In this document: in pieces, positions 9,901-45,334 of the stretch
Position numbering within the stretch: the stretch's first letter is position 1
Layout: every line of letters begins with the position of its first letter
Source of the DNA: an uncultured delta proteobacterium
Lineage (GTDB): Bacteria; Desulfobacterota; WTBG01; CAIYCZ01; CAIRTM01
NCBI GenBank assembly: GCA_903881505.1
Contig: CAIRTM010000011.1
Location: forward strand, 5,612-69,611
Length of the DNA stretch: 64,000 nt
Reading direction: 5' to 3'
Translations under genes and position numbers: made by a program
The notes under the pieces: generated by a model
What the model saw: the letters and a program-made list of their open reading frames with translations, nothing else
Database searches by the model: none
Told to the model about the DNA's origin: nothing

Positions 9901-10438
9901 GCCCGTGCCGTATGACTGCCAGAACTGATCGGCCTTCGTGTCGACGATCCCCCATGCCAGATCGCCGACTGCCTGCGGCTCCGCGCTGACGGATTCATCG
10001 ATAATCGGGGCGACGATCTCATAGGTCCCCGGCTTTGTCACGGCCGCAACTTCCGCGATGTCTGCCAGTGCCTTTGCCAGAGACGCTGAACCGCCGCGGA
10101 CGTACAGGCTGTTATCGGCAAAAAAGGATACATATTCGACCCCGGCCGAGTCCAGGATCTGCTTCGCATGAGCCTGACTGGCCTGCGCTGTCGCGCGAAG
10201 TGCATCGTAGACAAAACGGCCGCGGGCCTTCCAGTCCATACGATAGGCCGGCCCCAGGTCGGCCTGCTGCGCAAAATGCAGGATAAAATCTTCCTGGCCA
10301 TCGTCCTGAAGTGCCTGGACCAGCTCGGGGTCGATTTTTCCTGATGCATCCTTCGGATTATCCTGAGCCATTGCACTTGCGGCAACCAGCACCATCAGAC
10401 AAACCGCTGCATTCAAAATTTTCCGTCTCATCCCTTTC
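6910..10438 (-). CDS. Secreted multidomain subtilisin-like S8 peptidase (~1176 aa from the MRRKILN start). I9 propeptide, S8 catalytic domain, several beta-sandwich and CarbopepD_reg-like domains, then the shared ~90-aa C-terminal domain.
   Basis: ORF track, with the start corrected to ATG 10438 (AGGAGGAAAGGG RBS, signal peptide MRRKILNAAVCLMVLVAASAMAQ). Motifs DTGVQWNHPAL, HGTHVMGT, GTSMASPH. C-terminus KCRLTVQYK...VPAGLAPQVIPIRVGDCGGEVVID. Confidence 0.9.
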
Positions 10439-10442
10439 CTCC

Positions 10443-10495
10443 TTGACAGTAAAAATTTATACAATACTGTATCCCGGATACTGTATACCGCACAA
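10443..10495 (-). promoter_or_regulatory. Candidate promoter and operator of the S8 peptidase gene
   Basis: On the minus strand, TGTATAAAT (extended -10 type) lies ~25 nt upstream of the ATG. The direct repeats ATACAGTAT-CCGGG-ATACAGTAT (plus-strand ATACTGTAT at 10464..10472 and 10478..10486) sit over the -35 region. Confidence 0.35.
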
Positions 10496-10736
10496 ACCAG
10501 AACCCATGGTTCATGAGGCTTCCCCACGCAATTATTGTGTCTATTCATTGCGTACCATAATCCTCGTTTTTCAAAATAGCAACAAAATTTACAATTATTA
10601 GTTGAAGAAAACCCCATAAAGTACTCCACGCCCCTTACAGGCCTTTTTCCAATGGAACCCCGTCAAAAAAACAGGTCCGCATCAACACAGGGAAGGCGGC
10701 AATCCATGCTCAGGGCGGCCTGCGCAACGTGAGATT

Positions 10737-23283: not shown

Positions 23284-24386
23284 ATAGGGGACGTCCATAA
23301 ATTAATAAATAATTTTCAATCTAGCAGCTTGCATTTCAATTCTGCGGCCGTCTGCTCCCCGCGACGGCAAGCAAACACTATGGCTGGCTGCGTCAAACCA
23401 TATCGCTCGGCTAATGCCGTTCCGGATACACCCAGCTCATGCACTGCCCAGTATATGGCAAGACTGCGGGCTTCCACACGGCGCCGATCCCGCCCCTTCT
23501 TCCTTACTTCTTCTGCCGGCAGTCCCATTACTTCCGCTACCCGCCGTTCAATCTTATCAATGTCATAGCCCCGGCGCTTTAATTCATATCCCCGGCGGCA
23601 TGTCTCCTCTGCACGCGATAGCACCTGTTCAACAAAATCACTGTCTCCCAGTATCCGCACATCGCTCTTTACACGGTCCTGGCCTTGCAAGCGGATTTTT
23701 TTGACAGCATCCCAGCCGCCCATGCTCCGAATCAATCCGCCGCCAACCAGCTCCGGCCGCCTGCCATGTTCAATCCCCTGAGCAATAAACTGTGAATACT
23801 GTTTCCGCGCCATTTGTACCTTTTTGCCGAACATGTTGACCACATAGCCTGTCTGCTGCCAGGTGTAAGCTTTCTCTCCTATCAGGGCGCTGTGCCCAGC
23901 GTATGCGTACTTGTCCAGCTGCTTCATTGTTCTTACAATACCGGCCCTTAACGGATTTAAATGAATATAGCGGACCAGTTCCTTCAGATAGATATCCTCC
24001 TGGCATATAATTGATTTATACCGATTCTGAAACAGCTGACCGTGACGGTTATACTTACGATTGAAATATCCGGAATACCCAGTCAAAAGCCTCCTCATAA
24101 GCGTTGCCAGACCCACATCGCCAGTACGCAAAAGTAAATGCGCATGGTTGTCCATCAGTGCCCATGCATAGCAGCTCGTGTTGCTGGCCACAAGAAACTG
24201 CCCCAGCCGCTGAATAAACCACTCCTTATCCGCTGAAGTGCGAAAAATCTTTTTGCGCTCAATCCCCCGGAAGATAACGTGATGCACTACACCGGGTGCG
24301 TCCAGTCGGGCTACTCGTGGCATGCAAACACTTCTATCAAAGCACATCCCTTCCGTCAATTTATTAATTTATGGACGTCCCCTATA
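23284..24386 (-). mobile_element. IS200/IS605-like insertion element bounded by perfect 26-bp terminal inverted repeats
   Basis: ATAGGGGACGTCCATAAATTAATAA at 23284..23309, and its reverse complement at 24361..24386, flank the transposase gene. Confidence 0.75.
23316..24323 (-). CDS. IS200-like Y1 (HuH) transposase fused to a DnaA domain-IV-like C-terminal HTH
   Basis: ORF track (23316..24359, TTG start). The likely start is MPRVARLDAPGVVHHVIFRG. HuH motif MDNHAHLL and catalytic Tyr region FQNRYKS. The C-terminal RSLAIYWAVHELGVSGTALAERYGLTQPAIVFACRRGEQ resembles the DnaA C-terminal DNA-binding domain. Confidence 0.8.
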   Translation of the reverse strand: MPRVARLDAPGVVHHVIFRGIERKKIFRTSADKEWFIQRLGQFLVASNTSCYAWALMDNHAHLLLRTGDVGLATLMRRLLTGYSGYFNRKYNRHGQLFQNRYKSIICQEDIYLKELVRYIHLNPLRAGIVRTMKQLDKYAYAGHSALIGEKAYTWQQTGYVVNMFGKKVQMARKQYSQFIAQGIEHGRRPELVGGGLIRSMGGWDAVKKIRLQGQDRVKSDVRILGDSDFVEQVLSRAEETCRRGYELKRRGYDIDKIERRVAEVMGLPAEEVRKKGRDRRRVEARSLAIYWAVHELGVSGTALAERYGLTQPAIVFACRRGEQTAAELKCKLLD

Positions 24387-24536
24387 TTCTCCCCGGTTTC
24401 CTTGGCAAGAGTTCCCATACGACTAATAAAGTTCCTTCGGTCTTCTTCATCCCGGACTATCAGGCCCTTTTCTATACCTCTGATAATCACGTGATGCAAG
24501 GTTCCCGGCGCATCCAGCCTTGGCCCTCGTGGCATT
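24387..24536 (-). pseudogene. Truncated N-terminal fragment (~49 aa) of an older copy of the same transposase, interrupted by the intact element
   Basis: Manual translation MPRGPRLDAPGTLHHVIIRGIEKGLIVRDEEDRRNFISRMGTLAKETGE, then the reading frame runs into the right IR. A degenerate IR-like AACGTCCCCTAT sits at ~24607. Confidence 0.55.
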
Positions 24537-24661
24537 GACTCTTCCTTCCCTGTGCCTGTCGGTTTGATCCCTGCAGCATACTAACGTTTGTGTACTTTGT
24601 TAACAACGTCCCCTATCATGCACACTCTATCTTTTCCCTCAACCGATTCGGCGCAAAATCT

Positions 24662-25015
24662 TTATTTCTTTAAAAATGAGATTAAAAAAAGACTGGCTGA
24701 ACCTAATAGAACAATTCCCAAAATTGCAGCCGGAATCATATAATACAAAGCACCCGCCATTTCATCCAAATTTTGATTAATCATATAAGCAGCTATGCAT
24801 ATTAGTTCAAAAAAAACCAAGTGCCCCACAGAATGAATGGTGAATTTTGTATTAAAACAAAGAGGCATTGCAATCGAATATAAAATAGCCAACACTGAAA
24901 ACAGAATGAAAAAAAGCATGAGATGCCCATCTTTGCCTCTTGTAACGGCGTAAGATGCGATGACCAATAAGGTGCCAAACCAGTATAAATTGAAAATCTT
25001 CAATAGTGATTTCAC
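24662..25015 (-). CDS. Putative immunity protein of the Rhs toxin (117 aa, polytopic membrane protein)
   Basis: Its start overlaps the Rhs stop. Low-GC codon usage matches the toxin C-terminal domain. Four hydrophobic helices. Confidence 0.6.
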   Translation of the reverse strand: MKSLLKIFNLYWFGTLLVIASYAVTRGKDGHLMLFFILFSVLAILYSIAMPLCFNTKFTIHSVGHLVFFELICIAAYMINQNLDEMAGALYYMIPAAILGIVLLGSASLFLISFLKK

Positions 25016-28000
25016 CAGATACTCCCCATTGCTTTAATTTGGTTAATCGCAGGATTTTTTGAAACAATTATATCTGGAGCTGGTGCAAGATCAGGCCCAT
25101 GAATATTTGTAAAGAAGTCTGCTGAAAGCATATAATCCGAATGATTATATTCATCAAAAGGCTTATCATGTGGCAATATATATTTGCCCATGGTTTCATC
25201 TGGAGCAAATTTTCTATTCGTTATCCAACCAAGTTCCTGAATTTTTGCGATCTCATCTCCTTTTGCACCAATTCCGCCTTTAAACCATGCCCATTCATCA
25301 TTGGGGGACCAGTAATTATACGTTTTTCCCCGAATCTGAGATAGAGCCTTTAATAAATCATTCGTTTCTGAATTGAACGGGAGTACATCCAGAGGACTTC
25401 CCATCATGATAAAAGTATCCACCTTTGATCCACCTTGTAGAGCAGCAAGGCTAATTATTGTACCTTGACTGTGGGCAATAATACTAATAGGTTCACAACT
25501 TTTTTCTTTTTCCTTTATGCTATTCAAGAGATTTAAAATTCTTTTTAACCTATCAACACTAACCATCATGTATTTTCTGTTCGAATCTCGCATGCCCGCA
25601 ACGCTATCTGTTGCATAATTAGGCTGTCCACCTTGTTTTCTTGACAAGCCGAACGAAGTAGATGGATCCCCCCATTTAAAAGGAATTATTTCCTGAATAT
25701 TCTGCCCAGTAGAATTCCAATAGGCCTTCAAACCCTTTTCCGCAGTACTAAACCATGCAGCATCGGTATTTACACCATGAACCAATACAACGACATCACC
25801 TAAAGGATCGATGCAATCATTGGTATTATTAAAAACAAAATTATATAGATTGACACCCCCTGCTTCCCCCATCGGGTCTCTATTCAACCACCGTCCAAGT
25901 ACCGGGCTGTAATATCTGTAGCCATAATAATAGAGCCCCGTCTCAGCTTCGAGGTACTTTGTGGAAAAACGGTACGGGTTAGCTTCTGCCAACAAGCCAT
26001 TAGAATTGATGGTATTCCCGAAGGGATCGTATTCGTAGTGTGCGGCGATAATGCCATCAGTGTCTACAAGCTGGCCGACGTTGCCGTTGGCGTCGCAGGT
26101 GTAGTAGTGTGCGTTGTCGCTGATACGGGTAAGCAATCCGCCGATGCCGCCTGCGCCCTGGAGGGTGCCGGAGAGGTCGAGGCCCCAGACGTACAAAACA
26201 GAAGTCTGAAGTCCAGGGTTCGAGGTCGGAATAGAAACTTCACAGATAAGATTCCAGCCGTCGTAGAGGAAGCGGGTGTCGGAAGCAGCAGACCAGGAAT
26301 CGGCGTTGTAGTCAAACACCTGCTTTTGCACGCGGCGGCTCATGTAGTCGTAGGTGAAGGCGACCTTGCGGGTTCCGGGAGCAGGGGTTTGCGGTTCGAC
26401 AGAGATAAGGCGGTTTTCGGCATCGTAGGTTAAGGCGGTGCGCACGGCGCCCGCTACACTACCTGCGACCAGATTGCCGTCTTCGTCGTAGTGCAGGTCA
26501 TCAGTAACCGGCGCGCCCGCGTTCGTGGTGATCTGTGTGTATTGATTGAGCGGATTCGGGTCGTAGGTGATCTGCTTCGTCAATGCTTCGATTGCCGATT
26601 CGCGATTGCCGATATTGTCGTAGGCGAAGGTGCGGGCTTCGGCGTTGACCGGGGTGGTGGTGTCGCCTGTGTCGGTTCCGATGTAGCTCTGCGATCCAGT
26701 CAATTCACTGCGTGAGTTGTAGCCGTAGAGGTTGAAGGCGGCCCGGTCAAAGGCTGCGCCGGAGTTTTTAACGCTGGTCCTGCGGCCCATGCTGTCGTAG
26801 GCGTATGCATAATTTGAAATAATTTGCGCATTGTATGCGTTTTCAATGTTTGTTCGTACATTCCTGTTAGGTTCATAGCTGTAGGTTGTTATCAGACCTC
26901 TGTCGGTCGTGGTGCTCTGCAGCAGATGTGAATTCGGCACGTATGAATACACAGCATTGCCGGACAGGCTGTCGCCAGTCCAGCCTACATTGATAAATCT
27001 GCCGGTGGGGTCGTAGGCGTAGGTGATGTCATACCCAGCACCAAGAGAAAAACCGGAAGAACGGCCTAACCCGTCGTAGTCTCGAGTGATGGTTTCATTC
27101 ATAAGCCCGGTCATGGTTTCTGTTTCAAGCTGCAGGGCGCTGTTATAGGCAAATGTTCTGCTGCCGGCTGCATCACTCACGGTCTTCTGCCTGCCGAGAC
27201 GGTCATAAGAGAACTGCACATCGGGCGTGGCATCGGAATAATCAATTGCCGCAAGCTCTCCGGTTGCGGGATCATAATTATAGCTGGTGACAATCGTTCC
27301 GCCTTCGCGCGCCCAGGTGCGGCTTGCAAGCCTGCCGCCTGATGCGTAGGTATAGGCAACCTGCTTGCCTTCAGCATCCTGCTTTGCCTTGAGCAGCCCG
27401 GTTGCCTCATCATAGATCCACAGGGTTTCATCGCCTGATGCCCCTGCGGGGAACGTTTCGCCGTCAAAGCCTGCGCCTTCGCGGTAAGTGAGCATACGCG
27501 CAAGCCTACCGTAACCGTCATACTCATAGCTCACCGGATAAGTGGCGCTGCCCCACTGACGGGTGATCTGGCCCTGATTGTTGTAGCTGTAGCGCACGGT
27601 TGTGTTGTCAGGATTGGTCTCGGATATCTTCTCGCCGGTCGCCGAATTATAGTTGTACAGCGTGCGGTTACCGGCTGCATCCTGCACCCAGGCGACCCGG
27701 CCATGCGAGGTGTAACCTGTTGTGCTTCTGCCCGTGCGTGGATCGGTCAGGCCTACCCTTCTGCCAAGATCGTCATAGGCATAGGTCAACGTCACTCCGC
27801 TTTTGCCCGTGCTTGACATGAGCAAACCGTTCACGCTGAATGACACCGCATCGATGGTGCTGTCAGGATAATCAACCGTGGCGGTTTCAGTGCCCGCAGC
27901 CCGGTTGATTACGCTCCTTGATACCACCCGGTTGCCGAGCGTGTCAATTGAAACATTCTCGCTCACGAGCCCGCCCGAGCCAAGCCCGGTAAAGCGGCTT

Positions 28001-31000
28001 AACTGCGTTGCCACTGTTGTGGGTGTAGCGCTGTTCTCGGTTGCAAAAACCTTTTGCTCTGCTTTTTGCCACCAGGCATCATCAGCGGACACATACACCG
28101 AAGTGGATGCGGTGATGCGGTCGCCCGATGCAGGCGCAAGCACATTATTGCCATCCACATCAAGCCCGCTCATAACCTGATTGCCGATTTCATCGTATAC
28201 ATACAGGGTGGCAGCCATGCCGGTTGCAGTGGTTTTTACAAGCTGGCCCTTGTTGTTGTAGAAATTCTCAGCTGCTTCCACGGTTCCGCCAAAGCCCGGT
28301 TTTTCAACCCGCACTGTGCGGCCGAGCATGTCGGTCACGGTTTTCTCCCACACCGGGCCGCTCAAATCTTTGGTGTACACGGTGGTGCAGCGCGTGCCGT
28401 CCGGGTTCACGCCGTATTCATAGAAGCGCGCAATGGTACCCGTGCCGCTTACCGACTTGACCTGGCCGTCAAGAAAGCGCTCCGTGATTTCGGTCGCACC
28501 TCCGGGACGGGTGACTGTTGACACGCGCCCGCCAGCAGCATAGCTGTACTTCGTCACCAGGCCGTCAGCTGCCGTGCTGCTCGTGAGCCTCCCTGCCTTG
28601 TCGTAGGCACTCTCTGTTGCAAGGCTCAGGTCTCCCGCGCTTACCGTACTCGTCAAGCGCCTGCCTGATCCATCGTAGGTATAGGCGGTGGTGACCTGGC
28701 CGTGCGCGCCCGGGCGCCTCATGTGCGTTACGCGCTTCATAAAATCATACTCATAGCCCGTCACAATACCGCGCGCATCCGTCTCATCAGTCATGCCGCA
28801 GCAGTCCCAGTTAGCGCTGGTCTCGGTGCCGTCGGAGTTTACCACCCGGATGACATGGCCCTCGTGGTCGTAGGTATTCACCGTCCAGCTCACGCTCTCA
28901 TAGCCGGAACCGGTATACACGAGCGTTTCCTGCATCATGGTGCGGCCAAGCCCGCTTGCGATGGTGTTTTCGCGGATCGTCGTGCCGGCTATGCCCTCAG
29001 GGCTGGTGACGGTTCCGCGGGTCAGCGTGTTCTGCAGGTCACTGCCTGAACCTTCAGCGAAAGTGCCCTTCGATCCGTCGTCCGGCCGGCTGTAGGCGCC
29101 GCGCACATAGCTGTAGCTGTCAAGACGGCCGTCAGAATAGGCAACGCTTCTGAGCCTGCCGGAGTTCACCGTGCCGGTGCCTTTACTGTAATACGTGCGC
29201 GTTGTGCGCTGATTGCCGGAAGCGCCGAAGGATGCGCCGGGACTGGCGGCCTGCTCGACAGTCTCGATCCGGTTGCCGTGCGCATCACGTACATAAGAAT
29301 ACCAGGCCTTCGCAACCACGGTGCCCAGTATCGTCTCTGTTATTGTGCGCGGACGATGGCTGTCTTCGGGCAGGCCGGAGTCCTGCGGATCGATCGGGGT
29401 GTAATCGTAATGCCTGGCGCGCGCTGCACCGGCGCCGGCGCCCGCTGCGGAATCAAGCCATGAGCTTACCTCAACGCTTGTGCGGCCCTGAGCGTCGTAG
29501 CTGTACGTCGTGGCCGAACCGTCGGGCTGCGTCCGGCCGAGCACCCTCCCGGTAGCCGGATCGTACTGCGTGCGGGTGGTGAGGCGGGCAGCATCCGGAT
29601 CAATTGTTTGCTCCACCACGGCCCGGCCCCATGCATACGTGCGGTACAGCGTGCTGGTTTTGGAAGCAACCCGGCCTGAGCGGTCTTTTTCCGTGCGCAC
29701 CTCGGCACGCTCATCGCTGCCAATGTCCGTGGTCTGGACCTCTACCACCTGGTCGCTGTCGCCCTTGATGAGCGTCCAGACATTGGAGCCTTCCGGCTTC
29801 CGGTATTCGTAGCGCTTTGCCGCGTCGCCGCGGTTTTCCGTGATCAGCAGGCTTTCGCACACGTCCTTTGATGCGCTCTGGTTGCGGACAGTCCACTGCG
29901 CGATCGGGCTATATCCGAAGTTGACCTCATAGATACCCTCGTCGTTTTTCTCGCCCCTGGCCGAAGGCGGGTAAAACAGCACCTGGTAGGAATAGTCGTC
30001 AACGGGCAGGATATCCACGAAGGCCTCGGGCGCAACAATTTGGCGCAGCACGTCGCGGCCGTAGAGCTTGTACACATCGTAGATTTCGGAAGAGAACTCC
30101 CCTGACGGCGCATACACGGCCTCAAGGCCTTGTGCCAGGGACTCAAGGCCCAAAGCCGCCTCGGTGTGATCGCCGACGGCATCCGGGCTTTTGGGCTTCG
30201 CTGCATCGGGGCGGAGCCTGTCAGACTGAATGAACAGCGACCCGGCGCTCATGCCGCCCGCGGCCTTGCCCAGACTGATTTTGAAATCAATGCCCTGGTT
30301 CAGGTCGATATTCTTCAGCGCACACGCCGGGCAGCCGGATTTTTGCGCGCAGGATTCGCACCCCACGGCAATGCTGCGGGTGATTTCGCAGGCCGGGCTT
30401 TTAACATCCTTTACGTTCAGCACAATAAACCCGCCGCCGCCCTCAAGCCGGGTGCTCTCATCTATGGACAGCCAGCAGCTGGTTCCCTCCTGGGCTATGA
30501 TGCTGCCCAGAATGCCGGGGCTGGTCCTCTCGTTATCGATCTGCCACTCAAGCTCCATGCCCTCGTAGGGCTCCTCGGCGCGCACTTCAACCGTTGATCC
30601 CGGCATCAGCGGATAGGCGCTTTGGTCGTCCTGTGCGTCAATATAGACGTTCTTCAGCCTGCACGGGGCTGCGATGAAGGTGCCCGTGGTGCGCACCTCG
30701 CGGCCCTCGGGAGATGTGATCAAGAGCGTTATGGGGATTTCATCGCCCGGCACAAGGTTTTTCTCATTTTTCATGCGGAAGGTAAAATACCCCTCGCCAA
30801 GGGTGCCGGCCGTGGGCACGGGGTCGCCCACAAGCTCGAAGTCCGGGTGGGTCGAGCTGATCGCGGGCGTTTTGCCGCTCACCCCGAACCCGTTCAGATT
30901 GATCAGCGCGTACTTGACCGTGCGCTCGCCCTTGTCGATCGATGGAAAGTAGCGGTTTTCCCAGTTGTACTTCCCGTTTTCATAGTCGATATAGAGTATC

Positions 31001-34000
31001 CAGGTATTGTTCATGAACTCGTTCAGGCTGTCACGGGCCTGGTACATGGCGCCGATCTGACCCATGGCTCCCGCCAGGGTGAACCCGATACCGCCCATAC
31101 CCATTGACTGAATCCGGGCCAGCTGCAGCGCCATGACATTCTGCGCTATGCCGCGGATCAATGTATTGACGGGAACATTGCCGTCGCGGATCGAATCTGA
31201 ATTGGTTATGAGGGCTGCTGCAGCGTCGGCAAGCACGCCTGCAACCTGCAGCCAGTCGCTGTATTGAGGATCGACAAAATCCCGGTTCCACTTGGCGATC
31301 TCTTCGACAATCTGGCCGCCGCCGATGACGTACGGATCGGCGCCCTTGAGGCTGATGAAATAGCCCATGCGAAAGGGCCCCATGGGATTGCCCGGCGGCG
31401 TTGTCGATATGATGCCCACGCCGGTGAAGGTGCCGACATCAATGCGCTGGGAGGGCACAAGCACGTTCTGCCCATAGTCCGTGAGCTCGCGGCTGACGAT
31501 TTCAAGGTCTTCGGGCTCAAGCTGCAAAGGGGACAGATCAAAGCTTCCCATGTCCTGCGTGAACTGATACAGCGGCACATTTCTACCCACGGCCTCGGCC
31601 ACAAGCTTCACCGCCGAGACGGACTCCTGCCGGAAGAGCTGCTGCAGCACCAGGTGCTCGAACACCGAGCCCTGCATGCCCTCGGTGCGCAGGAAGGCAT
31701 CTCTCAGCTGCCAGTCGGCATCCTGCGGCACTGTCTGGACCCGCTCGGAGACATCGACACGGATATTGGTCTCGGTGACGCGCACGGGCCATACGTCGAA
31801 CAGGTAGGACACCTTCAGGTGCCGTGCAATGCGTATATCGGAAGGGTTGCGGTACCAGCGCACGCCCAGCTGCCGGGCGATCAGGTCGGCATGCGTGTCG
31901 AGCTGGTAAAAATAGGAGCTGCCGGTGATGTGCAGCTGCTCGCCCAGCAGCCGGTCCAGCTCGCTTGTGCGCTCGCCCAAGGCTTCGTTAAAACGCGCGA
32001 GCGCCGCGGTGATGTTTTCAGAACTGGCGCGGCCCAGGCCCAGCACAATCGCGGTGTGGTCGCCGACCGTGGTGACGTAATCGCTTGTGCGGGACGGGTT
32101 CTTGACGTCCTCGCCCGGCCGTACGATTGCTACGCGCAGGGTCTCCTCGAGTCCCATGGATATCTCGGCGTCCTTGCCCGTGTTCTCCGCCACCAGACGG
32201 CCGTTCAGGCGCAGCTGCGGACGCATGTAGATCATGTACAGGGGCGTTTCCAGAAATGTGCCCGTGTATTCGGCCAGGGTTTCGTAGTCTGCGCTCGTCG
32301 AGGGCACGTAGGACAGCACCAGGCGCTGGCCCGCCACCTGTGAGGTGGGCGCGCGAAAGTCGATTTCAAGAGTTTCAAGCTCGATGTCCAGGTCAACGCC
32401 CCAGTAGGAAAGCTGCACACTCACCTGATGGTGCTCTTCAAGGGGCACGGAGCTGTAGGTCCGGTACTGCGACTGGTCGGTCTCAAAGGGCAGCGTTATC
32501 GGCAGGATCGGGAATGTCTCCTTCGCCACCTCGTCATAGCCGTAAAAATCACGCAGCGTCATGTCCGGATGGTCATCGAGAAAGTCCTGCAGCCTTGCCT
32601 GGTAGTCTGCCGTGGATGCTGTCATGAACTCCTGGAACGATTCGGTATCGATATCAACCAGGCCGCTGTCGGCGATGTTGCTGAACTGATCGAGGCTCTG
32701 GATGAACTGCTCTGCATCGAAACCAAGGCCCTGTTCATTGACCGCCCCCGCAGTGCTGCGGTACTGCTTGAAGGCCGGGGCAAGGGGCACCCACAGCTTG
32801 TGCCTCTCGCTCTCAGCGGTGCCGCGGTAGTCGGCATAGGGAAGGTAGACCTCGACACAGGTGTGCAGGAATGAAGACTGCGCGATCGTTGAGCCGCGGT
32901 AGAGGTCCTCGACATCTTTGATGTCGCCGGTCGCCAGGTAATAGCCCACCATCGCCGGCGACTTCAATCCAAGCCACTGCATTGCGCGGTTGATGTCTAC
33001 GATTGCGCGGACCTCGGCGTAGCGGGCCGGATAGCCTGAATAGCGCAAAAGTGCTATCAGCAGCGAGGCGGTATCAACATCGTTGCCGCAGCCCTCGGCG
33101 AGCGTCTGCGCGGCCCCTTTGAGGCTGCCCCGGTAGGGCTGAAAGTCGATAGTGTTCTTGACCCACTCGTATATCCGTATGGGGTTTTTGCCAAGACTGT
33201 CGGCAAGCGCCTTGATGGGCGCGGCAAATACCACATCCCCCAGCTCATCCTCGAGCAGATCGGCGGCAGCCGGAGGCGCAACTGCGGCAATCGTCGCCCG
33301 GCTGAGAAGGCCCTGAACCGAAGAAACAGAGGCAACATGAATCGGCCGCGCGCGCCGGGGCAGATCCAGGTCCCAGGCCGCAACAGGGGAAAGCAGCGGC
33401 TGTGAAGGCTGCCCGGCGGACAGGGAGTCTTTGGAATTGAATTTCACCATTTTGAAGACGCCGTTTTCTGCCAGCAGGCCGAAGCCGGGGCGGGGCATGT
33501 TGAGCTCGCCTGTCTCGGCCGCAGTCAGTTCACGGCCCTTGGGCCTTACAATCTCTGAGGAGGTTTTGCTTTTGCGGGCGTTGCGGCCTAGTGCGGAAGA
33601 ACGCTCCATGGCCTCGATACGCTTCTTGCGGCCGCCCAGCAGGCCCCGCTCGATCATACCGTTAATGTCGCCGCGCCTGGTGCAGTCTGACAGGGCTGCA
33701 AAGCGTTTCTTCAGGGCGGCTGCCTGCGCCCGGTGGCGCTCAACAAAAACATCATCGGCTCCGTTCTCAAGGAGCTCCTGCTCCATCAGCGCAAGCAACC
33801 TGTCGAGCTCGCCGGTGCGGCCGGCAAAGCGCTCTGCGCTTTTCAAAAACGCTGCCAGGGCTTTTTCAGTGCGGCGTGACTGCATATCTTCAAATTTCCG
33901 GTCGAGCTGCTGCATGTGGCTCGACATCTCACTCCCCAGCTGCTCGAAACGCTCATACGTGCCGGGGTTGAACAAACTCTGGGCACCCGGCGCCGGAACA

Positions 34001-34053
34001 AAAAACAGACAACCTGCAAGAAGGGCACCTGTAAGCAGAGACAGCTTTTTCAT
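25012..34053 (-). CDS. Rhs/YD-repeat polymorphic toxin (3013 aa). Signal peptide, transglutaminase-like core, long YD-repeat shell, RHS core, and a C-terminal alpha/beta-hydrolase (lipase/PGAP1-like, Tle-like) toxin domain.
   Basis: N-terminal MKKLSLLTGALLAGCLFFVPAPGA. Transglutaminase-like core GCGNDVDTASLLIALLRYSGYPARY. Dozens of YDxxGR YD repeats. RHS core ending YRYYSPVLGRWLNRDPMGE...DPLGD. C-terminus VVVLVHG...IIAHSQGT (GxSxG nucleophile elbow). GC content falls over the last ~900 bp. Confidence 0.9.
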   Translation of the reverse strand: MKKLSLLTGALLAGCLFFVPAPGAQSLFNPGTYERFEQLGSEMSSHMQQLDRKFEDMQSRRTEKALAAFLKSAERFAGRTGELDRLLALMEQELLENGADDVFVERHRAQAAALKKRFAALSDCTRRGDINGMIERGLLGGRKKRIEAMERSSALGRNARKSKTSSEIVRPKGRELTAAETGELNMPRPGFGLLAENGVFKMVKFNSKDSLSAGQPSQPLLSPVAAWDLDLPRRARPIHVASVSSVQGLLSRATIAAVAPPAAADLLEDELGDVVFAAPIKALADSLGKNPIRIYEWVKNTIDFQPYRGSLKGAAQTLAEGCGNDVDTASLLIALLRYSGYPARYAEVRAIVDINRAMQWLGLKSPAMVGYYLATGDIKDVEDLYRGSTIAQSSFLHTCVEVYLPYADYRGTAESERHKLWVPLAPAFKQYRSTAGAVNEQGLGFDAEQFIQSLDQFSNIADSGLVDIDTESFQEFMTASTADYQARLQDFLDDHPDMTLRDFYGYDEVAKETFPILPITLPFETDQSQYRTYSSVPLEEHHQVSVQLSYWGVDLDIELETLEIDFRAPTSQVAGQRLVLSYVPSTSADYETLAEYTGTFLETPLYMIYMRPQLRLNGRLVAENTGKDAEISMGLEETLRVAIVRPGEDVKNPSRTSDYVTTVGDHTAIVLGLGRASSENITAALARFNEALGERTSELDRLLGEQLHITGSSYFYQLDTHADLIARQLGVRWYRNPSDIRIARHLKVSYLFDVWPVRVTETNIRVDVSERVQTVPQDADWQLRDAFLRTEGMQGSVFEHLVLQQLFRQESVSAVKLVAEAVGRNVPLYQFTQDMGSFDLSPLQLEPEDLEIVSRELTDYGQNVLVPSQRIDVGTFTGVGIISTTPPGNPMGPFRMGYFISLKGADPYVIGGGQIVEEIAKWNRDFVDPQYSDWLQVAGVLADAAAALITNSDSIRDGNVPVNTLIRGIAQNVMALQLARIQSMGMGGIGFTLAGAMGQIGAMYQARDSLNEFMNNTWILYIDYENGKYNWENRYFPSIDKGERTVKYALINLNGFGVSGKTPAISSTHPDFELVGDPVPTAGTLGEGYFTFRMKNEKNLVPGDEIPITLLITSPEGREVRTTGTFIAAPCRLKNVYIDAQDDQSAYPLMPGSTVEVRAEEPYEGMELEWQIDNERTSPGILGSIIAQEGTSCWLSIDESTRLEGGGGFIVLNVKDVKSPACEITRSIAVGCESCAQKSGCPACALKNIDLNQGIDFKISLGKAAGGMSAGSLFIQSDRLRPDAAKPKSPDAVGDHTEAALGLESLAQGLEAVYAPSGEFSSEIYDVYKLYGRDVLRQIVAPEAFVDILPVDDYSYQVLFYPPSARGEKNDEGIYEVNFGYSPIAQWTVRNQSASKDVCESLLITENRGDAAKRYEYRKPEGSNVWTLIKGDSDQVVEVQTTDIGSDERAEVRTEKDRSGRVASKTSTLYRTYAWGRAVVEQTIDPDAARLTTRTQYDPATGRVLGRTQPDGSATTYSYDAQGRTSVEVSSWLDSAAGAGAGAARARHYDYTPIDPQDSGLPEDSHRPRTITETILGTVVAKAWYSYVRDAHGNRIETVEQAASPGASFGASGNQRTTRTYYSKGTGTVNSGRLRSVAYSDGRLDSYSYVRGAYSRPDDGSKGTFAEGSGSDLQNTLTRGTVTSPEGIAGTTIRENTIASGLGRTMMQETLVYTGSGYESVSWTVNTYDHEGHVIRVVNSDGTETSANWDCCGMTDETDARGIVTGYEYDFMKRVTHMRRPGAHGQVTTAYTYDGSGRRLTSTVSAGDLSLATESAYDKAGRLTSSTAADGLVTKYSYAAGGRVSTVTRPGGATEITERFLDGQVKSVSGTGTIARFYEYGVNPDGTRCTTVYTKDLSGPVWEKTVTDMLGRTVRVEKPGFGGTVEAAENFYNNKGQLVKTTATGMAATLYVYDEIGNQVMSGLDVDGNNVLAPASGDRITASTSVYVSADDAWWQKAEQKVFATENSATPTTVATQLSRFTGLGSGGLVSENVSIDTLGNRVVSRSVINRAAGTETATVDYPDSTIDAVSFSVNGLLMSSTGKSGVTLTYAYDDLGRRVGLTDPRTGRSTTGYTSHGRVAWVQDAAGNRTLYNYNSATGEKISETNPDNTTVRYSYNNQGQITRQWGSATYPVSYEYDGYGRLARMLTYREGAGFDGETFPAGASGDETLWIYDEATGLLKAKQDAEGKQVAYTYASGGRLASRTWAREGGTIVTSYNYDPATGELAAIDYSDATPDVQFSYDRLGRQKTVSDAAGSRTFAYNSALQLETETMTGLMNETITRDYDGLGRSSGFSLGAGYDITYAYDPTGRFINVGWTGDSLSGNAVYSYVPNSHLLQSTTTDRGLITTYSYEPNRNVRTNIENAYNAQIISNYAYAYDSMGRRTSVKNSGAAFDRAAFNLYGYNSRSELTGSQSYIGTDTGDTTTPVNAEARTFAYDNIGNRESAIEALTKQITYDPNPLNQYTQITTNAGAPVTDDLHYDEDGNLVAGSVAGAVRTALTYDAENRLISVEPQTPAPGTRKVAFTYDYMSRRVQKQVFDYNADSWSAASDTRFLYDGWNLICEVSIPTSNPGLQTSVLYVWGLDLSGTLQGAGGIGGLLTRISDNAHYYTCDANGNVGQLVDTDGIIAAHYEYDPFGNTINSNGLLAEANPYRFSTKYLEAETGLYYYGYRYYSPVLGRWLNRDPMGEAGGVNLYNFVFNNTNDCIDPLGDVVVLVHGVNTDAAWFSTAEKGLKAYWNSTGQNIQEIIPFKWGDPSTSFGLSRKQGGQPNYATDSVAGMRDSNRKYMMVSVDRLKRILNLLNSIKEKEKSCEPISIIAHSQGTIISLAALQGGSKVDTFIMMGSPLDVLPFNSETNDLLKALSQIRGKTYNYWSPNDEWAWFKGGIGAKGDEIAKIQELGWITNRKFAPDETMGKYILPHDKPFDEYNHSDYMLSADFFTNIHGPDLAPAPDIIVSKNPAINQIKAMGSIW

Positions 34054-34823
34054 TAAAGAGCTCCTTTAGTGCGGTGATGGTCGTTTGTGGACGAAGTAGG
34101 CGTTGTGGACACTGTGGACTCAGTTGACCGGCACCGGGAGCGCACGCGGTAGAGGCGCTCGGTGAAACCGCCTTCATTTTCAAAGGCCTGTGCAAGGGAA
34201 GCGAGCTGACGGTCAAGCAGCGCACAGGCAACGGCCACAAGCGCAAGAGCGCCGTTGGCGGCTATTTCGGGAAAACCGGGAGTGGACATGGTGGACGATG
34301 TGGACGGCGTGGACGAAAAACCTTTATTAATATTTTTTTCAAAATGTCCACTGCGTCCACATCGTCCACTTGGTCCACTGTTGTACACCTCCCGCACCCA
34401 GTGCGCAAACTCATCGGCCGTTGTGCAGCGCCGGTCAACCAGGGCCTGCCTGCGCGCGTCCCCGCGCTGCCAGAGGGGCAGGCCCCGCTGGCGCAGAAAA
34501 TCCTCATAATCGACCCGGAGTTCCTCAAGGCTTGCGCGTGCGACACTGGTGAGCCGCAGCTCGGTTTTTTTCGAAGTGCCGGATGCCTGGCTGCCCTCGG
34601 CGATATTTTGCACGCCTGAGCGCGCAGCCTGCACCATCTGGTCGCGCGTTCGGCTGCGCCGGTCGACATAGCGCTCGCAGAAGCGCACGGTCACGTCATG
34701 CACGAGACGGGCGACTTGAAAGCTTTTCAGCCCGCGGTAGCCGCCGTGTTTTGGTATAAGCTTTTCAGTCATTCTGGGGCTCGCATTCAGGCAGTGTGCC
34801 GATGAACGGTTCATGGCCGACAT
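34053..34823 (-). CDS. Four-helix-bundle protein (TIGR02436 / 23S rRNA intervening-sequence protein family, DGR Avd-like fold). The 3-prime third overlaps the repeat/palindrome region.
   Basis: The likely start is MTEKLIPKHGG. It overlaps the upstream stop as ATGACTGA. Family motifs QMVQAARSGVQNIAEGS and LTSVARASLEEL. The ORF then reads through the GTGGAC arrays as STPSTSSTMST. Whether the downstream ~380 bp is coding is uncertain. Confidence 0.65.
   Translation of the reverse strand: MSAMNRSSAHCLNASPRMTEKLIPKHGGYRGLKSFQVARLVHDVTVRFCERYVDRRSRTRDQMVQAARSGVQNIAEGSQASGTSKKTELRLTSVARASLEELRVDYEDFLRQRGLPLWQRGDARRQALVDRRCTTADEFAHWVREVYNSGPSGRCGRSGHFEKNINKGFSSTPSTSSTMSTPGFPEIAANGALALVAVACALLDRQLASLAQAFENEGGFTERLYRVRSRCRSTESTVSTTPTSSTNDHHRTKGAL
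34084..34381. repeat. Arrays of head-to-tail 9-bp TGTGGACNN repeats (resembling high-GC DnaA boxes), arranged as a ~37-bp-arm palindrome around a 27-bp AT-rich core, plus a third array
   Basis: 34279..34316 GTGGACATGGTGGACGATGTGGACGGCGTGGACG. AT core AAAAACCTTTATTAATATTTTTTTCAAAA. 34344..34381 TCCACTGCGTCCACATCGTCCACTTGGTCCAC (inverted). 34084..34128 TGTGGACGAAGTAGGCGTTGTGGACACTGTGGACTCAGTTGACC. Confidence 0.6.
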
Positions 34824-37800
34824 TCATGGAGCCCTGCCATGACTTGACGATAACTGTGCCTGAAATAATGCCGCTGTTGTTTGTCAGTTCAGCCAGCGGC
34901 GCAAGCACACTGCCATTCAATGCCACTGCCGTACAGTCAAAGGACGTCGCCTCAAAAAAATTAAAAAGAATATAGCCGCGCATCCAGCCCGGAACAGCCA
35001 TGCCGATATGCGAAACTTCCGTATGCTCGCCACTGATATTTATGATAACCGTTGCGTTTCGCGGGATATCGCTCAGGTGCAGGCTGCTGGCGCTTCGCAG
35101 CTGCTGAGCGCTGATGTTGAATATCTGGACGGGGTTTGTGCCGCTGCCGCGCAGGGTCAAAACAGCGGCACAGGTTGATGCGGTTCCGGTGGGCGCAAGG
35201 CCGCCAAGACGCGTTGAGAGCAGGCGAAAGCGCGATGATTCCTGCTCGAAGCCAAAGGGTAGCTCTGCATTGCCGGCAACCGTTGCGCCCCGAGCCATTG
35301 TGCGGCGCACCATGCAGGACACACCGTCAACACTGCCGGAGGCGACGATGCTGCCCCGGTGGACCACGCCGATTCCGTACTCAATGTCGCCGCCGGAGAC
35401 AAGAACGCCACGCTCCGGAGCGCCGTGCGGCACATATGTGCCCATAACGACATTCTCAAGCTCGACATCACCGGCCGCGGCAACACGACCCGAAACGGTT
35501 GCATGCTGCGATGCCAATGGGCCAAGCGAAAAAATGCTGTAGTCCTGCGCAACGCCCAGACTATCGACACACTCAACCGGCTGATTGGGTATGGTAATCG
35601 CGCAGGTGTCGGGAATGCTGTCGAGCTCTCCGTCATTGACGATGAGCTGTATAATATAGGCACCGGCTTTATCGGCTGTAAAGACCGGGTCGGGCAGCGT
35701 GCTGTCATTGAGCACGGCCGTGCTGCCTTCAGGCGCGTTTACTATCGCCCACTGGTACGTAAGCGGGTCGGCATCGGGGTCATGGCTGGCTGAAGCGTCA
35801 AGACGCACAGCATCGCCTTCATTCACTTCACGGTCAGGACCGGCATCGGCAAGCGGGCGGCGGTTGCGCGTTGTGACCTCCAGTTCAACAGGATCGCTTG
35901 CATACTCAAAATCGCGTACAACGAGCTGCAGCCGGTACACACCCGCCATGTCAGCTTGGAAAACAGGATCGGAAGCAAAACGATCGGACAGTTCAGCCGC
36001 GCTGCCTTCGGGCCGGGCGGCCAAGGTCCACTCATACTGCACGATCGTATCGTTGTCGGGATCATAGCTTGCGGATGCTTCAAGCTGCACCGTTTCACCG
36101 ACCTCGATGAGCAGGCTTTCACCGGCGACCGCAAGCGGCGGGCGGTTTTCGGTGGTGACGAGCACGCTGTCGCTGCGGCTCCGGCACATGCCGTCAGAAA
36201 CGCTCAGGCGCAGCTCATACGCGCCGTGCCGATCCGGCAGCAGCGTCGGATTATAGATATCAGAACCGGCAAGCCGGGTGATGCTTCCCTCCGGGGACGC
36301 AGCCAGAGCCCAGCTATAGCTGATGCTGTCGCCGTCAGCATCGTAACTGCCGGAGCCGTCCAAGCGGGCAAAATCACCAACATGTACCAGGATATTTTCA
36401 CCGGCAACGGCAACCGGACAGCGGTTAATAATGCCCAGCGGGGCGAATGCAAGGTTGTGAGCGGTACCGTCAATCATGGTGGACAATATAATCACATAGT
36501 CGCCGCAGGCCAGACCTGCGCTCTCCAGCACGCTCGTGCCGCTGCAGTCGTTACCATCAAACATGCAGGTGGTTTCGAAAACCGTTGTCTCCTGCCGCGT
36601 GGAGGTGTTAACAGCCCTGGAAACCAATGCAGTTTCATCGAGTGCGGTATTACCGCTGTTGGTAACGCCATAGTTCAGCGCAACATCCTGCCCGCGATGC
36701 ACCTGTGCTGGCTCTGCGGTAAGAAAGGCGCCCAGCCCCCTGCCGCCGTCCGCGCTGGGTGCAATGGTGAAATGCGTTCTGTCCGATGCAACCGGGGTAC
36801 CGTCCTGCTCAACGCTCAGGTTCAGCGTGTAGAGGCCGGGGGCATGTCGCGCCGTATTCCAGGCCTGCTCCCAGGAGCGGCCTGCAAGCGGCGGCAGCAC
36901 CCCAACAGCATGCTCATCGGTATAGAGAACGTCACCTCTGGGGCTGAGCAGCTCGACAAAAGCGCTCAGGCCGCTAAATGCATAATTGGGCGAAAAGCTC
37001 TGCAGCACACTGCTGATGCGCACCTGCGCATGATCATAATAGAGCCTGCGCTCCGTGCTGACATCGGCGCCGACCGTCCGATCAGCCAGGATCACAAAGG
37101 GGGCAGCTGCCGCGGCGCGGCGCTGACCGTCTTCAAACAGGGTGGCCGCAACACTCAACTGCCCGGCCGGCGCGCTGCCCGTATTCCATACAAAGTCATC
37201 TATAACCACGGTGCCGCCGGGCGGCAGCACAACGATACGTCCTTTCGCAGGCTCGGCGGCGACCGTTCCGTTACTGTCAAGCATTGCCACGTCAAGAAGT
37301 ACGGTCCGTTCGACGGGAGAACTGTTGGTTATACGGGCTGTAATGACAACATCCTCGTCATATCCATACTGATCGCGGTCAAGGTTCAGCTCGAGCGCAA
37401 GTCCGCTGGGCACAACACGGATCAGGGCACTTCCTGTGTTGTTGTTCTCATTCTGTTCCCTGATCATGCCTTGGGGATCGGACTGCACGATGATGCGGCG
37501 CTCGCCCGTGCGCCCGGCTGTGTCAAACAGAGCGCTTGCCGTGCGGCTCCCGCCATGCGGCACGATCTCATGGATGATGCGCTCCGCGATCAGTTTTTCA
37601 GCCGCGACCTCGCTGTCGTAGAAATGCACCGTGACGCCGTCGACATCCGCTCCGAGGTTTCGCACCGCAGCCGACACGCTTACCAGCGCGCCTTCAACCG
37701 GAGATGCGTCTGCAAAGCTGATATCCGTATCGCGCACCTCAAGGTCGCTCAGGCTGCGGGGCACGACATCGATAGGTCGAACAGCACTGTTGTTGACCCG

Positions 37801-40800
37801 GTTGACATCATTGACCGCATTGACAGGATCAACAACAACATGGATATAGTTGCTGCCCAGCTGACCGTGCGTGTCCCACGGTTTGAAAACAATATCGCTT
37901 GCACCGGGCGCAAGCGATCCCAGCGCCTGATCGGACCCGATCGGCTCAGTGCCGTTCAGGAAGCGAACCGAGGTCGGGGCGGACGCGATGAGGCCGATAT
38001 TACGCACCCGGGCCGCGATGAGGACCGTGCGGCCCTCATCAGGCGCTTCGGGGCTGAACATGATATCCGTGCCTGCAATCGCAAGATCGGCAACAACATC
38101 GGACGTGTTCTCAACAACGAACGCACCCACGCCATAGCCCGGAACACCTTCAATGGTCCGCGCTTCGATGCTGACGATATCGGTACCGGCCGAATGAGCG
38201 GCGCTCAGCACATGGGTGCCGATAAACACCCCGCCAATCTTGGCAAATGCGATGCTGTGGGTGCTGCCTTCGTATTCGGTGACGCTGCCCGAGACCTGCT
38301 GCACCTGAAAGGCATCCTCTTCGGGTTCGACGGTTACAATCACCGTATCACCGGGCTGATAAGCAGGCTTATCAAACGATATCGCCAGCTCAGGCCCCGG
38401 GGTATAGTCAGCCAACGCAAGGGCCCTGACCGCATAACCTGTAGGGTTTGTGCTGCTGCGCAGCCCTGGCAGTATCGGCCAGCCGCCGTCAGCATTCTGC
38501 ACGGCCAGCAGCCATTGCACGGCACGTGCGGTTCCTACCCCCTGGTTATCGGTCTGGATCAGGGCAAGAAGGACGCAGGCTGTATCCTGAACCGTGCTTT
38601 CATACTCGCCCCAGCCGCCATCCGCATTCTGACGCTGCTGCAGCCAGGCAACAGCGTCATCGACCTCTGTCTGGTAACCACCAAACTTGTTAAGTATTTT
38701 TAAACTGTTGGCAGCATGAGAAATAGTTTCCCAATTGACTGTACCTGTCTTCTGGAGCAGAAGCCACTCAATTGCCTGCTCTGCAAGGTCTCTCTGCGCG
38801 CCGGTAAGCATGACACCATCAGACAGCAAACCCAGCACGCAAAGAATCGTAGGATTGATTTCTGACGGACCCCCGCCTGCAAGACTGTACCGGTACCAGC
38901 CGCCATCGTCATTCTGCTGTCCAAAGAGATATTGAATCACTCCAGCCATGGCGTCAGTTTTGCCGCTGACATTTAGCCCTGTTTGACCCAAAGCCCTGAG
39001 AACTGCTGCGCCCGCAGTAAGATGGTGCTGGGGAATCATGGAAAACTGTATGTGCCAGTTGCCATTGCTTTTCTGCGTGCTGATAATACGGACAAGTGCC
39101 TCCACTATTGTTGCATTGTATCCGCCGGCATCATTCATGCTATCCAATGCAAGAAGTGCCAGTGATGTGGGGATGGCCTGGTCATAGGGGTTTTGAAAAT
39201 CTCCATCCGGCTCAACCATCATGGTCTTAAGCCATTGAAACGCCTTCCTGATGGCTGCCCCGCCGCCTGTGTCACTGCTGCGATACAGGCTTATGACAGA
39301 CTCTGCCGTCATACGAGGAGACTCCAGCGGCGTAGCTGATGGCTTTTCATCAACCCAGCCGCCATTCGCAGACTGAAGGGCCTTCAGGTCGTTCATCGTG
39401 GCCGCTATATCGCCGGCATTTCGTCCGGTGTAAAAAAGCATGGCAAGATAAGCGCTTTTATAATTGGCAACACTCCATATGTTGTCCCTGTACCAATTGA
39501 CCGCCTGTGTAATTGCCGCCTGACCGGCACTGTCGCTTTCATGGCAGGCCCAATGCAGACCGGCAACGGCATAATGCATATTCGTAGGCGCACTTGCCTC
39601 TCCGGCATAGAACCCCCAAAACCCGTCAGGGTTACGGCTGTCGAGCAGCCATTGCCGTGCTGCCTGCACTGCAGGATCCTCACGGCTTACCCCGGCTTCC
39701 ATTAAAGCCCACAGGGCATGCCCTGTATCCCGCACCGGAGAACTGTTCAACACGCCATCATCCCGCAAATACCTTTGCAGCCATATGAGTGCATTACTGA
39801 TGACAGGTGATGAAATATCCTCTCCAACAGCAACCAGGGCCAGAACTGAGTCTGCTGTTGCAGAAACGTTGTTTTCCCAGCTGCCGTTGGTTGCCTGCGT
39901 TTCACGAACACGCCGCAGAATCGTCGCATACATGCCGCTAAACTCGGGATCGAGGTAGCGGCCTGAGATATGCAGGGCATGAAGCGCAGCAGCATTGGCC
40001 CGCGCTGGAGCAAAATCTTCCCATCCGCCAAGGCTGTGCTGATGCTCAACGAGCCACTGGACGCCCTGAGAGACAGCCCTGTCCTTGAGGTTCTGTGAAT
40101 ACGCGATGGCAACAGTGGCAGCGGCGGTATTGTTTGCCTCATTGCTCTCGGCCAGCCGGCCCTGACCGGTTCCGTCGTCGTCAACCACGACAAACAGGTG
40201 ATACTCTCCTTCGACCGGATCTTCCCAGATAAGCGTGACATCTGCATACGCGCCCGAGGCAAGCCCGGAGGCTGTCTGCTCAACGCCGAGCAGTATGGCG
40301 CCCTGAGCCGGATCGCCGCTATAAAAGGCGACATCAATGCCGGGATCAACATCCACGGTGCCGGTATTGCTGACACTCACAGTTATTGCAGCACTGTCGG
40401 GCAGATTGTTCGGATTGCGACGGACACGCGAAGCCGCAAGATCAAGCACGGGATCTTCTTCAGGCACACCCACGGTGAGCGCAAACGATGCGCTGTTGTT
40501 GGCTGTGCCGGATTCCGGCACGAATCCACCCGGATCTGCGACAACATGCAGTGTGTGAGCGCCTGCCGGCAGGGAAATTGAAAAGGAGGCCGGTGCGCTG
40601 GCGTCGGCGGCAACCAGCGGCAGATTCACCCGGCCAAGTTCGGGGCTGGTGTCAGGCGGTCCGCTGTATACAGCCGCTTCGACATCGTAGGCCTCATGCG
40701 TACCGATATTGTGTATAACGGCATCCAGTGTGAAGGATTCTCCGGGCAGAAGAGGGCCGGAGTCAACCGAGAGGTCATCTGCAGTTATTGACAGATCGGG

Positions 40801-45282: not shown

Positions 45283-45334
45283 AACTGGCCCTGAAACAAT
45301 ACTGGCGAGTGAACGGAGAGGAGCCCCATCAACC

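Follow-up and report, generated by a model that had tools for sequence, protein, structure and literature searches.

What does a 9-kb Rhs gene with a Sec-type signal peptide do in an uncultured delta proteobacterium, and is the small gene that overlaps its 3' end a cognate immunity gene? We analyzed a 64,000-nucleotide (nt) stretch of DNA from this organism (GenBank assembly GCA_903881505.1, contig CAIRTM010000011.1, positions 5,612 to 69,611; hereafter the window, to which all coordinates refer). The gene in question, defined by its open reading frame (ORF) and by Pfam and NCBIfam matches, encodes an Rhs polymorphic toxin of 3013 amino acids (aa) at 25012..34053 on the minus strand (-). It is the third of four tightly packed genes, and its ATG has one base in common with the stop codon of the gene upstream. 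The window is chromosomal, with SecY, RpoA and ribosomal protein genes present. We consider it likely that this is a chromosomal, Sec-exported Rhs polymorphic toxin locus of a Thermodesulfobacteriota-like (deltaproteobacterial) genome. This reading is built on observations made here of the architecture of the protein, the fold and conserved residues of its parts, the linkage between toxin and immunity gene, and the exchange of both as a cassette.

A first-pass annotation of the window, made from the sequence alone, had described a 3013-aa protein with a signal peptide, and both were recovered: sequence and hydropathy place the signal peptide at approximately aa 1-26 (MKKLSLLTGALLAGCLFFVPAPGAQS; 33976..34053 (-)). 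Its end can be read either as a signal peptidase I site, with cleavage after AQS, or as a lipobox-like LAGC; homologs also begin with signal peptides, and the Cys of LAGC varies among them. All of the motifs quoted in that annotation were located in the translated protein by a motif scan (GCGNDVD at aa 321, YRYYSP at 2712, DPLGD at 2749, VLVHGVNT at 2756 and IIAHSQGT at 2858).

The YD-repeat (Rhs) shell covers approximately 1200 aa (~aa 1500-2752; 25798..29556 (-)) and was recognized by RHS_repeat (Pfam, 133.8 bits) and YD_repeat_2x (NCBIfam, 98.4 bits). A phmmer search matched it to solved cocoons of both Rhs and TcC proteins (best match 7q97, E = 1.2e-35). The last part of the shell, aa 2675-2752 (25798..26031 (-)), is an RHS-associated core (Rhs_assc_core, TIGR03696; 80.8 bits against an NCBIfam cut-off of 32.5) that contains the motifs DPMG (D2726) and DPLG (D2749). 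Pfam, NCBIfam and the motif scan thus agree with the earlier description of a YD-repeat shell and an RHS core ending in DPLGD. From these motifs, an autoproteolysis site is predicted at G2752/D2753. The C-terminal autoproteolysis motif of such proteins has been defined as PxxxxDPxG[LWF] (bioRxiv 10.1101/2024.02.26.582050). The junction here reads TNDCIDPLGD, with no Pro at -5 and an Asp where Leu, Trp or Phe is expected; both DPxG motifs are kept. Because Asp, not Leu, Trp or Phe, follows the Gly, the junction motif is non-canonical. The N-terminal cleavage motif PVxxxxGE, characteristic of type VI secretion system (T6SS) Rhs effectors, was absent from the toxin protein by motif scan. The YD repeats, the RHS core and the two DPxG motifs are those of an Rhs polymorphic toxin, as had been proposed, and so is the variation at the C-terminus: a Thermodesulfobacteriota metagenome-assembled genome (MAG; locus L018) encodes a protein of 2894 aa that matches collinearly over aa 1-2752 (42% identity) and ends in an unrelated C-terminal domain, with a lipoprotein gene downstream.

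The C-terminal toxin domain, or tip (aa 2753-3013; 25015..25797 (-)), is a minimal Tle3-like alpha/beta hydrolase, as judged by Pfam, phmmer, sequence alignment, a structural model and a fold search. In profile searches against the lipase, Tle and PGAP1 families, the Pfam family Tle3 (PF24322) matched aa 2824-2890 at 54.4 bits, above its cut-off of 27, and Lipase_2, PGAP1 and Abhydrolase_8 matched weakly. PF24322 was also found on all 16 close homologs of the tip. The family is rare, since the last 271 aa have 16 homologs among 5.8 billion clustered proteins and a profile search of 1.84 billion representatives returned 391 matches to the tip at E<=1e-3, 36 of them at E<=1e-30. Invariant in the 17 aligned tips are HGVNT (2759-2763), S2862 (in AHSQG), D2889 (GSPLD), D2919 (WSxxD) and H2971 (HSDYM). 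A model of the tip built from the alignment (pLDDT 82, pTM 0.85) found as its best match among solved structures in Foldseek the Tle3/Tli3 complex of adherent-invasive Escherichia coli (AIEC; 8BOZ, E = 2e-8), followed by a DDHD phospholipase and then by generic esterases, and phmmer aligned VHGVN and HSQGT of the tip with Tle3. The strand order of the model makes D2919, after beta7, the likely triad acid.

With a Pfam Tle3 match, a confident model and 8BOZ as its best structural match, the suggestion that the tip is a Tle-like alpha/beta hydrolase held. Its nucleophile elbow is not the GxSxG that had been quoted; the actual sequence is AHSQG (AxSxG). AIEC Tle3 has phospholipase A1 (PLA1) activity, with the nucleophile Ser265 in SHSQG and the oxyanion hole at Val55 (PMC9860674). 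Tle3 and the tip have in common the VHGVN oxyanion loop, the xHSQG elbow (SHSQG in Tle3 vs AHSQG here) and the order of the Ser-Asp-His triad. By contrast, Tle3 from strain LF82 (8BOZ; PMC9860674) has 658 aa, travels by itself as a T6SS cargo and contains large insertions and a Ca2+ site, whereas the tip is a minimal core of 261 aa joined to an Rhs cocoon that bears a Sec signal peptide. The label 'Tle-type' extends no further than fold and family: the window ORFs scanned contain no T6SS element, and the predicted immunity protein is unrelated to Tli3.

Directly downstream lies a gene for a 117-aa polytopic membrane protein (24662..25015 (-)), which we predict, from homolog linkage, hydropathy and alignment, to be the cognate immunity protein. 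As first described, the gene overlaps the toxin stop codon: its GTG start and the toxin TGA form a GTGA overlap (ATCTGGTGA), with a Shine-Dalgarno-like GGGGAG 6 nt upstream of the GTG. It had been called a four-helix membrane protein. The membrane part of this claim stood, and the four helices stood in part, hydropathy giving three clear hydrophobic segments and a weaker N-terminal one (three to four membrane helices). No Pfam or NCBIfam family matched the protein, and its family is small, with eight database hits. The invariant motifs are R26-G-x-D29-G30, H65, E85-M86-x-G88 and P95; helices 1 and 2 are separated by RGxDG, His65 belongs to helix 3, and LxEMxG precedes helix 4. The positive-inside rule would put both of the invariant loops on the periplasmic side, which fits a lipase acting there.

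Gene linkage points to a protective role. Homologs of the 117-aa protein are encoded immediately 3' of the same hydrolase domain in L001 (92% identity), L002 (46%) and L003/L004 (28%), and this holds alike for a toxin attached to an Rhs fragment and for a stand-alone toxin with a signal peptide. In a Phycisphaeraceae MAG (L007/L008), the homolog follows a 67-aa remnant of the toxin C-terminus, an orphan-immunity arrangement. The linkage is kept in five out of five informative contexts, so the proposal of a cognate small membrane immunity gene has gained support: the gene behaves as expected of an immunity gene, and on this linkage its protective role is predicted. Tli3 is an outer-membrane lipoprotein rich in beta-sheet (PMC9860674), and the 117-aa protein has no detectable similarity to it. 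We regard the membrane immunity family as previously uncatalogued and unlike the known Tli lipoproteins.

Toxin tip and immunity gene together form an exchanged cassette (24635..25894, no strand assigned), which we delimited by GC content and by nt identity to L001, an unrelated metagenome scaffold. Over these 1260 nt the two sequences are 96.0% identical; outside the cassette, identity is 65.2% in the Rhs shell upstream and ~46% downstream. The cassette runs from the RWLNRDP codons (left junction) to 30 nt beyond the immunity stop codon. Its right junction falls inside the terminator hairpin of the cassette, which is whole in L001. GC content is 0.34-0.39 in the cassette and dips to 0.36-0.41 across 24500-26000, against surroundings of ~0.60; in-frame GC at third codon positions (GC3) of the toxin gene falls from 0.64-0.72 to 0.26-0.38 beyond ~aa 2700. 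In L001 the flanks have ~50% GC and the cassette 37%, and at each of the five loci checked the cassette has a lower GC content than the DNA around it. The drop in both GC and GC3 plots supports the earlier notion of a low-GC tip and immunity module, and the contrast between 96.0% and 65.2% identity supports its horizontal exchange; a recent swap of the cassette onto this Rhs scaffold is the conclusion to which the comparison with L001 leads. A tblastn search of the window for further copies of the tip or the immunity gene, with core, tip and immunity protein as queries, returned this locus alone.

Tips of the same family are also found at the end of other Rhs proteins with signal peptides (2761-4034 aa), from which the N-terminal module described below is absent. 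We noted, in addition, mini-carriers of the tip with signal peptides of their own (L001, 2674-4944; L003, 6001-7394; L002, 6001-7445), in which the tip follows a 350-aa Rhs-end fragment (L001), a YYHAGMGRFLSRDP core remnant only (P0003) or no RHS sequence at all (P0002). The tip is therefore probably secretable without a full cocoon. Just past the right junction of the cassette lies a 5' fragment (~48 aa, MPRGPRLDAPGTLHHVIIRG...; 24392..24535 (-)) of a paralog of a Y1 (IS200-like/REP-associated) transposase. After the fragment comes a full-length Y1 transposase that carries, as a fusion, a DnaA C-terminal-type helix-turn-helix domain (23316..24323 (-)).

The N-terminal part of the protein opens with a region conserved among close homologs (aa 27-240; 33334..33975 (-)), for which relatives give matches to helical families below threshold only; it is probably an alpha-helical stalk and linker. 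The conserved module proper (aa 240-1240; 30334..33336 (-)) combines a transglutaminase fold, mixed alpha/beta domains, a three-helix bundle and immunoglobulin (Ig)/macroglobulin-like beta-sandwiches; the part in common is aa 250-890 in 24 homologs and aa 1-1200 in the closest ones. The transglutaminase-like core that had been proposed is present as a fold (Transglut_core, aa 289-405; 32839..33189 (-); 40.5 bits against a Pfam cut-off of 23), but its active site is lost: D325 stands at the canonical Cys position, H397 is kept, and A425 stands at the canonical Asp position. GN[D/A]xD occupies the nucleophile position across the whole family, the triad Asp is replaced by Ala (WVPLAPAF) in this clade, and the Cys of the 'GCG' motif is neither conserved nor at the catalytic position. 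Judged by these residues, the domain is catalytically dead.

Is such an N-terminus unusual for Rhs proteins, as the first-pass annotation held? It is not, because RHS toxins that combine a signal peptide with an inactive transglutaminase have already been described by Zhang, de Souza, Anantharaman, Iyer and Aravind (2012, Biol Direct 7:18; PMC3482391). In that class Ig domains sometimes adjoin, and the dead transglutaminase was proposed to act as a surface anchor (PMC3482391). The protein in the window resembles the class in its signal peptide, its transglutaminase with lost catalytic residues, its RHS repeats, its variable toxin and its downstream immunity gene, and Ig-type domains are adjacent here as well. 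By architecture and lost triad residues, we assign the locus to this inactive-transglutaminase, Sec-dependent Rhs class. It differs in that the transglutaminase fold sits in a conserved module of ~1000 aa, in the ~1100 aa between that fold and the first YD repeats, and in the existence of the module without RHS, fused to DUF900-type hydrolases; between the signal peptide and the transglutaminase core there are ~260 aa of helical/linker sequence. The length of the module and its RHS-less occurrence appear to go beyond the 2012 description. The RHS-less proteins (P0020, P0021, P0023 from L012, and P0035) are ~1950 aa long and carry a DUF900/Abhydrolase_6-type hydrolase near aa 1520-1700; the module has thus been paired repeatedly with alpha/beta hydrolases. 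A lake-derived 'Deltaproteobacteria' MAG is the closest genome, at 89% identity in the transglutaminase region. Further carriers are mostly Thermodesulfobacteriota, with distant ones in bacteria of the candidate phyla radiation, Bacteroidota and Akkermansiaceae. In the literature searched, we found no experimental work on this class, which has been predicted since 2012.

How might such a protein be delivered? No T6SS genes were found among the window ORFs scanned, and the toxin has neither a PAAR nor a VgrG domain. It resembles T6SS Rhs effectors (7Q97, Tse5 8CP6, Tse15 8UY4) and TcB-TcC cocoons in its YD-repeat shell, its RHS core with two DPxG motifs and its C-terminal toxin, here predicted to be encapsulated. 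It differs from T6SS Rhs effectors in having no PAAR, VgrG, clade domain or PVxxxxGE, and in carrying a signal peptide and a large surface-type N-terminal module instead. WapA of Bacillus subtilis is an Rhs toxin that is exported by Sec and anchored to the cell wall; its tip is polymorphic, and its immunity gene lies next to it. The WapA host is monoderm, and WapA has cell-wall-binding repeats and tRNase tips. Sec export, retention at the surface, a polymorphic tip and an immunity gene alongside make up the concept that WapA and the present protein have in common. Unlike B. subtilis, however, the organism here is diderm, so that an outer-membrane step has to be accounted for.

From these observations we infer a sequence of events that takes in the export route, autoproteolysis, the lipid substrate, and the topology and mechanism of immunity. 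The signal peptide would direct the protein across the inner membrane. The ~1200-aa N-terminal module, with its helical stalk, catalytically dead transglutaminase fold and Ig/macroglobulin-like sandwiches, would present or anchor the toxin at the surface of the cell, and the 29-kDa C-terminal domain would be held inside the YD-repeat shell, where cleavage at DPLG|D is expected of the aspartyl protease in the RHS core (D2726, D2749). The freed domain would act as a minimal Tle3-like serine hydrolase (S2862, D2919 and H2971, with the oxyanion loop HGVNT) whose most likely activity is to deacylate, from the periplasmic side, the phospholipids in a competitor's membrane. The overlapping 117-aa protein would be the cognate immunity factor, its invariant loops RGxDG and LxEMxG predicted to be exposed to the periplasm at the surface of the inner membrane. 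Tip and immunity gene would form a mobile low-GC cassette, recombined onto this Rhs scaffold at the conserved core.

Several points weigh against this model. The PF24322 match spans only profile positions 156-223 of 321, the tip has 261 aa against 658 aa for Tle3, and an alpha/beta-hydrolase fold does not reveal a substrate. Two invariant Asp residues, D2919 and D2889, compete as triad acid, the assignment being based on order and not on geometry. Autoproteolysis is not assured, because TNDCIDPLGD differs from PxxxxDPxG[LWF]; no outer-membrane export or delivery machinery was identifiable in the 64-kb window; and the Tle immunity proteins known so far are either periplasmic or lipoproteins, unlike a polytopic membrane protein (PMC9860674). 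The first of these points would suit a serine hydrolase that acts on something other than phospholipid, for instance a lipoprotein or lipid-A acyl chain, a peptidoglycan O-acetyl group or a thioester: the Pfam match is partial, the large Tle3 insertions are missing, and thioesterases, carboxylesterases, a siderophore esterase and cutinases score similarly after Tle3 in the fold search. We think this unlikely, given that Tle3, a demonstrated PLA1, tops both the sequence and the fold matches, that the DDHD domain, the second fold match, is likewise a phospholipase, and that a membrane-embedded immunity protein suits a substrate at the membrane surface. If it were true, 'lipase' would be a misnomer and the logic of toxin and immunity would be unaffected. 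The swapped tip and non-canonical cleavage motif could also mean that the protein is a recent, non-functional fusion from which the toxin is never released, and the DPLGD in place of DPxG[LWF], the missing Pro five residues upstream and the truncation of the terminator hairpin by the right-hand junction are consistent with this. Against these stand an intact 9-kb reading frame, retention of both catalytic-type Asp residues (D2726, D2749), variation of the residue after DPxG (T, E, K or L) in other carriers of the same tip and the presence of the same DPLGD junction in the L001 copy, and we hold such a fusion to be very unlikely.

The 117-aa protein might, instead of binding the toxin as an immunity protein, serve as an accessory factor in activating or exporting it, or be a distantly YhhN-like protein that removes toxic lysolipid products. 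Six of ten family members match Pfam YhhN (lysoplasmalogenase) in one register (best 24.6 bits, E = 2.4e-5), none of eight reversed or shuffled controls does, the immunity family keeps an intramembrane His and Glu, and a YhhN enzyme protects Mycobacterium tuberculosis from lysolipids (PMC9052158). Every YhhN match, however, is below the gathering score of 25.6 (PF07947), and the window protein itself has none. Moreover, hhalign gave 0.2% probability against E. coli YhhN, equal to a control membrane protein, and 3% over 32 columns against a five-sequence YhhN profile; there are four helices here vs eight in YhhN; and the gene is kept beside a truncated toxin remnant, as is typical of immunity genes. 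The odds of such an accessory role seem poor to us. Membership of the family in YhhN/TMEM86, with specific but sub-threshold Pfam matches and negative or weak profile-profile tests, was kept as a low-probability lead only. Lastly, the Sec signal peptide and Ig/macroglobulin-like domains, the co-transcribed gene for a giant adhesin-like protein and the lack of T6SS genes nearby would be compatible with a protein that is mainly a surface adhesin, a nutrient-acquisition enzyme or an anti-eukaryote factor and not an interbacterial weapon. A protective-type gene that is tightly coupled and co-transferred with tips that are polymorphic on a conserved scaffold is nevertheless the self-protection signature of an antibacterial toxin, and an orphan immunity gene with a toxin remnant occurs in Phycisphaeraceae. 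We give these other roles only a slim chance, and retain the reading of the locus as a Sec-exported Rhs polymorphic toxin with its immunity gene.

The first gene of the apparent operon (34765..43422 (-)) encodes a secreted giant protein of 2885 aa, which we characterized by Pfam, NCBIfam and locus comparison. It comprises terpenoid-cyclase/prenyltransferase-like alpha/alpha toroids, eight CARDB domains, PKD and a C-terminal choice-of-anchor A/pAdhesive_15 domain. A homologous giant gene also lies directly upstream of the Rhs homologs in L005/L011 (70% identity; L005, 601-9246) and in L017 (44-8938) and L018 (93-8048; 29-44% for these two), which with the window makes four diverged loci. It is absent beside the more distant or RHS-less homologs in L019, L012 and the contig of P0018. 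Only short flanks were compared, and simple inherited gene order could also give this linkage. A bolder, and rather doubtful, extension of the model is that the giant protein and the 1000-aa dead-transglutaminase module make up a dedicated, T6SS-independent apparatus for Rhs display and contact-dependent delivery in Thermodesulfobacteriota, in which a new class of polytopic membrane immunity protein would shield the inner membrane from a lipase acting in the periplasm.

A gene for a 256-aa four-helix-bundle protein (34053..34823 (-)), identified by Pfam and NCBIfam (23S rRNA IVP family with a TIGR04258 suffix), separates the giant gene from the Rhs gene and overlaps each of them. It is probably an unrelated inserted small gene. 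The middle gene varies among loci: four-helix-bundle in the window and in L005, PDDEXK_3 in L018 (8396-8782) and none in L017. The four-helix-bundle IVP and PDDEXK_3 families both occur in 23S rRNA intervening sequences, which hints that small mobile genes favour the junction between the giant and Rhs genes. Inside the four-helix-bundle gene we noted a 34-nt inverted repeat of GTGGAC-type hexamers (34281..34379; 85% complementary, 31-nt spacer). A diversity-generating retroelement, a candidate prompted by the Avd-like four-helix-bundle gene, was rejected, there being no template/variable repeat pair in the window and no reverse-transcriptase domain in the scanned ORFs. Divergent from the operon, a Cache-domain histidine kinase and a sigma-54-dependent response regulator are encoded at 43819..46684 (+). 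A sigma-54 promoter that would tie the operon to this Cache kinase and NtrC-type regulator was likewise rejected: TGGCAC-N5-TTGC at <=2 mismatches did not occur in 43422-43800, and matches to the consensus across the window were fewer than expected by chance.

Elsewhere, no Rfam family matched anywhere in the window. Three more large secreted proteins are encoded at 1616..2824, 3066..5951 and 6910..10629 (all (-)): a 402-aa unannotated protein, a Kelch-repeat protein, and a subtilase with CarboxypepD_reg and InlB B-repeat domains. Their genes have similar 100-nt 3' ends, which may encode a common C-terminal sorting domain. The 402-aa and Kelch-repeat proteins also have Cys-rich repeats in common, arranged in tandem at 144-150 nt in the Kelch-repeat gene. 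Finally, collinear stretches at 1-68, 90-389 and 1059-1307 (within 1..1369) recur 9032 nt downstream (9033..10339) with 74-89% identity; they are the repeat families D1, D3 and D8, and the downstream copies lie in the 5' part of the subtilase gene.

Collectively, the locus is a further example of a known weapon class and not a new kind of system. Its new elements are the uncatalogued membrane immunity family and the giant adhesin-like gene kept directly upstream in three relatives. Because the cassette recurs almost unchanged on a second scaffold, the recombination junctions can be placed to within ~30 nt, and the tip indicates that Tle3-type lipases extend beyond T6SS cargo. For the inactive-transglutaminase Rhs class, the locus is a clean case that lends itself to testing, with a defined Tle3-like warhead of 29 kDa, a membrane immunity family with sharp invariant motifs and, in the conserved giant neighbouring gene, a candidate partner of the Rhs toxin.

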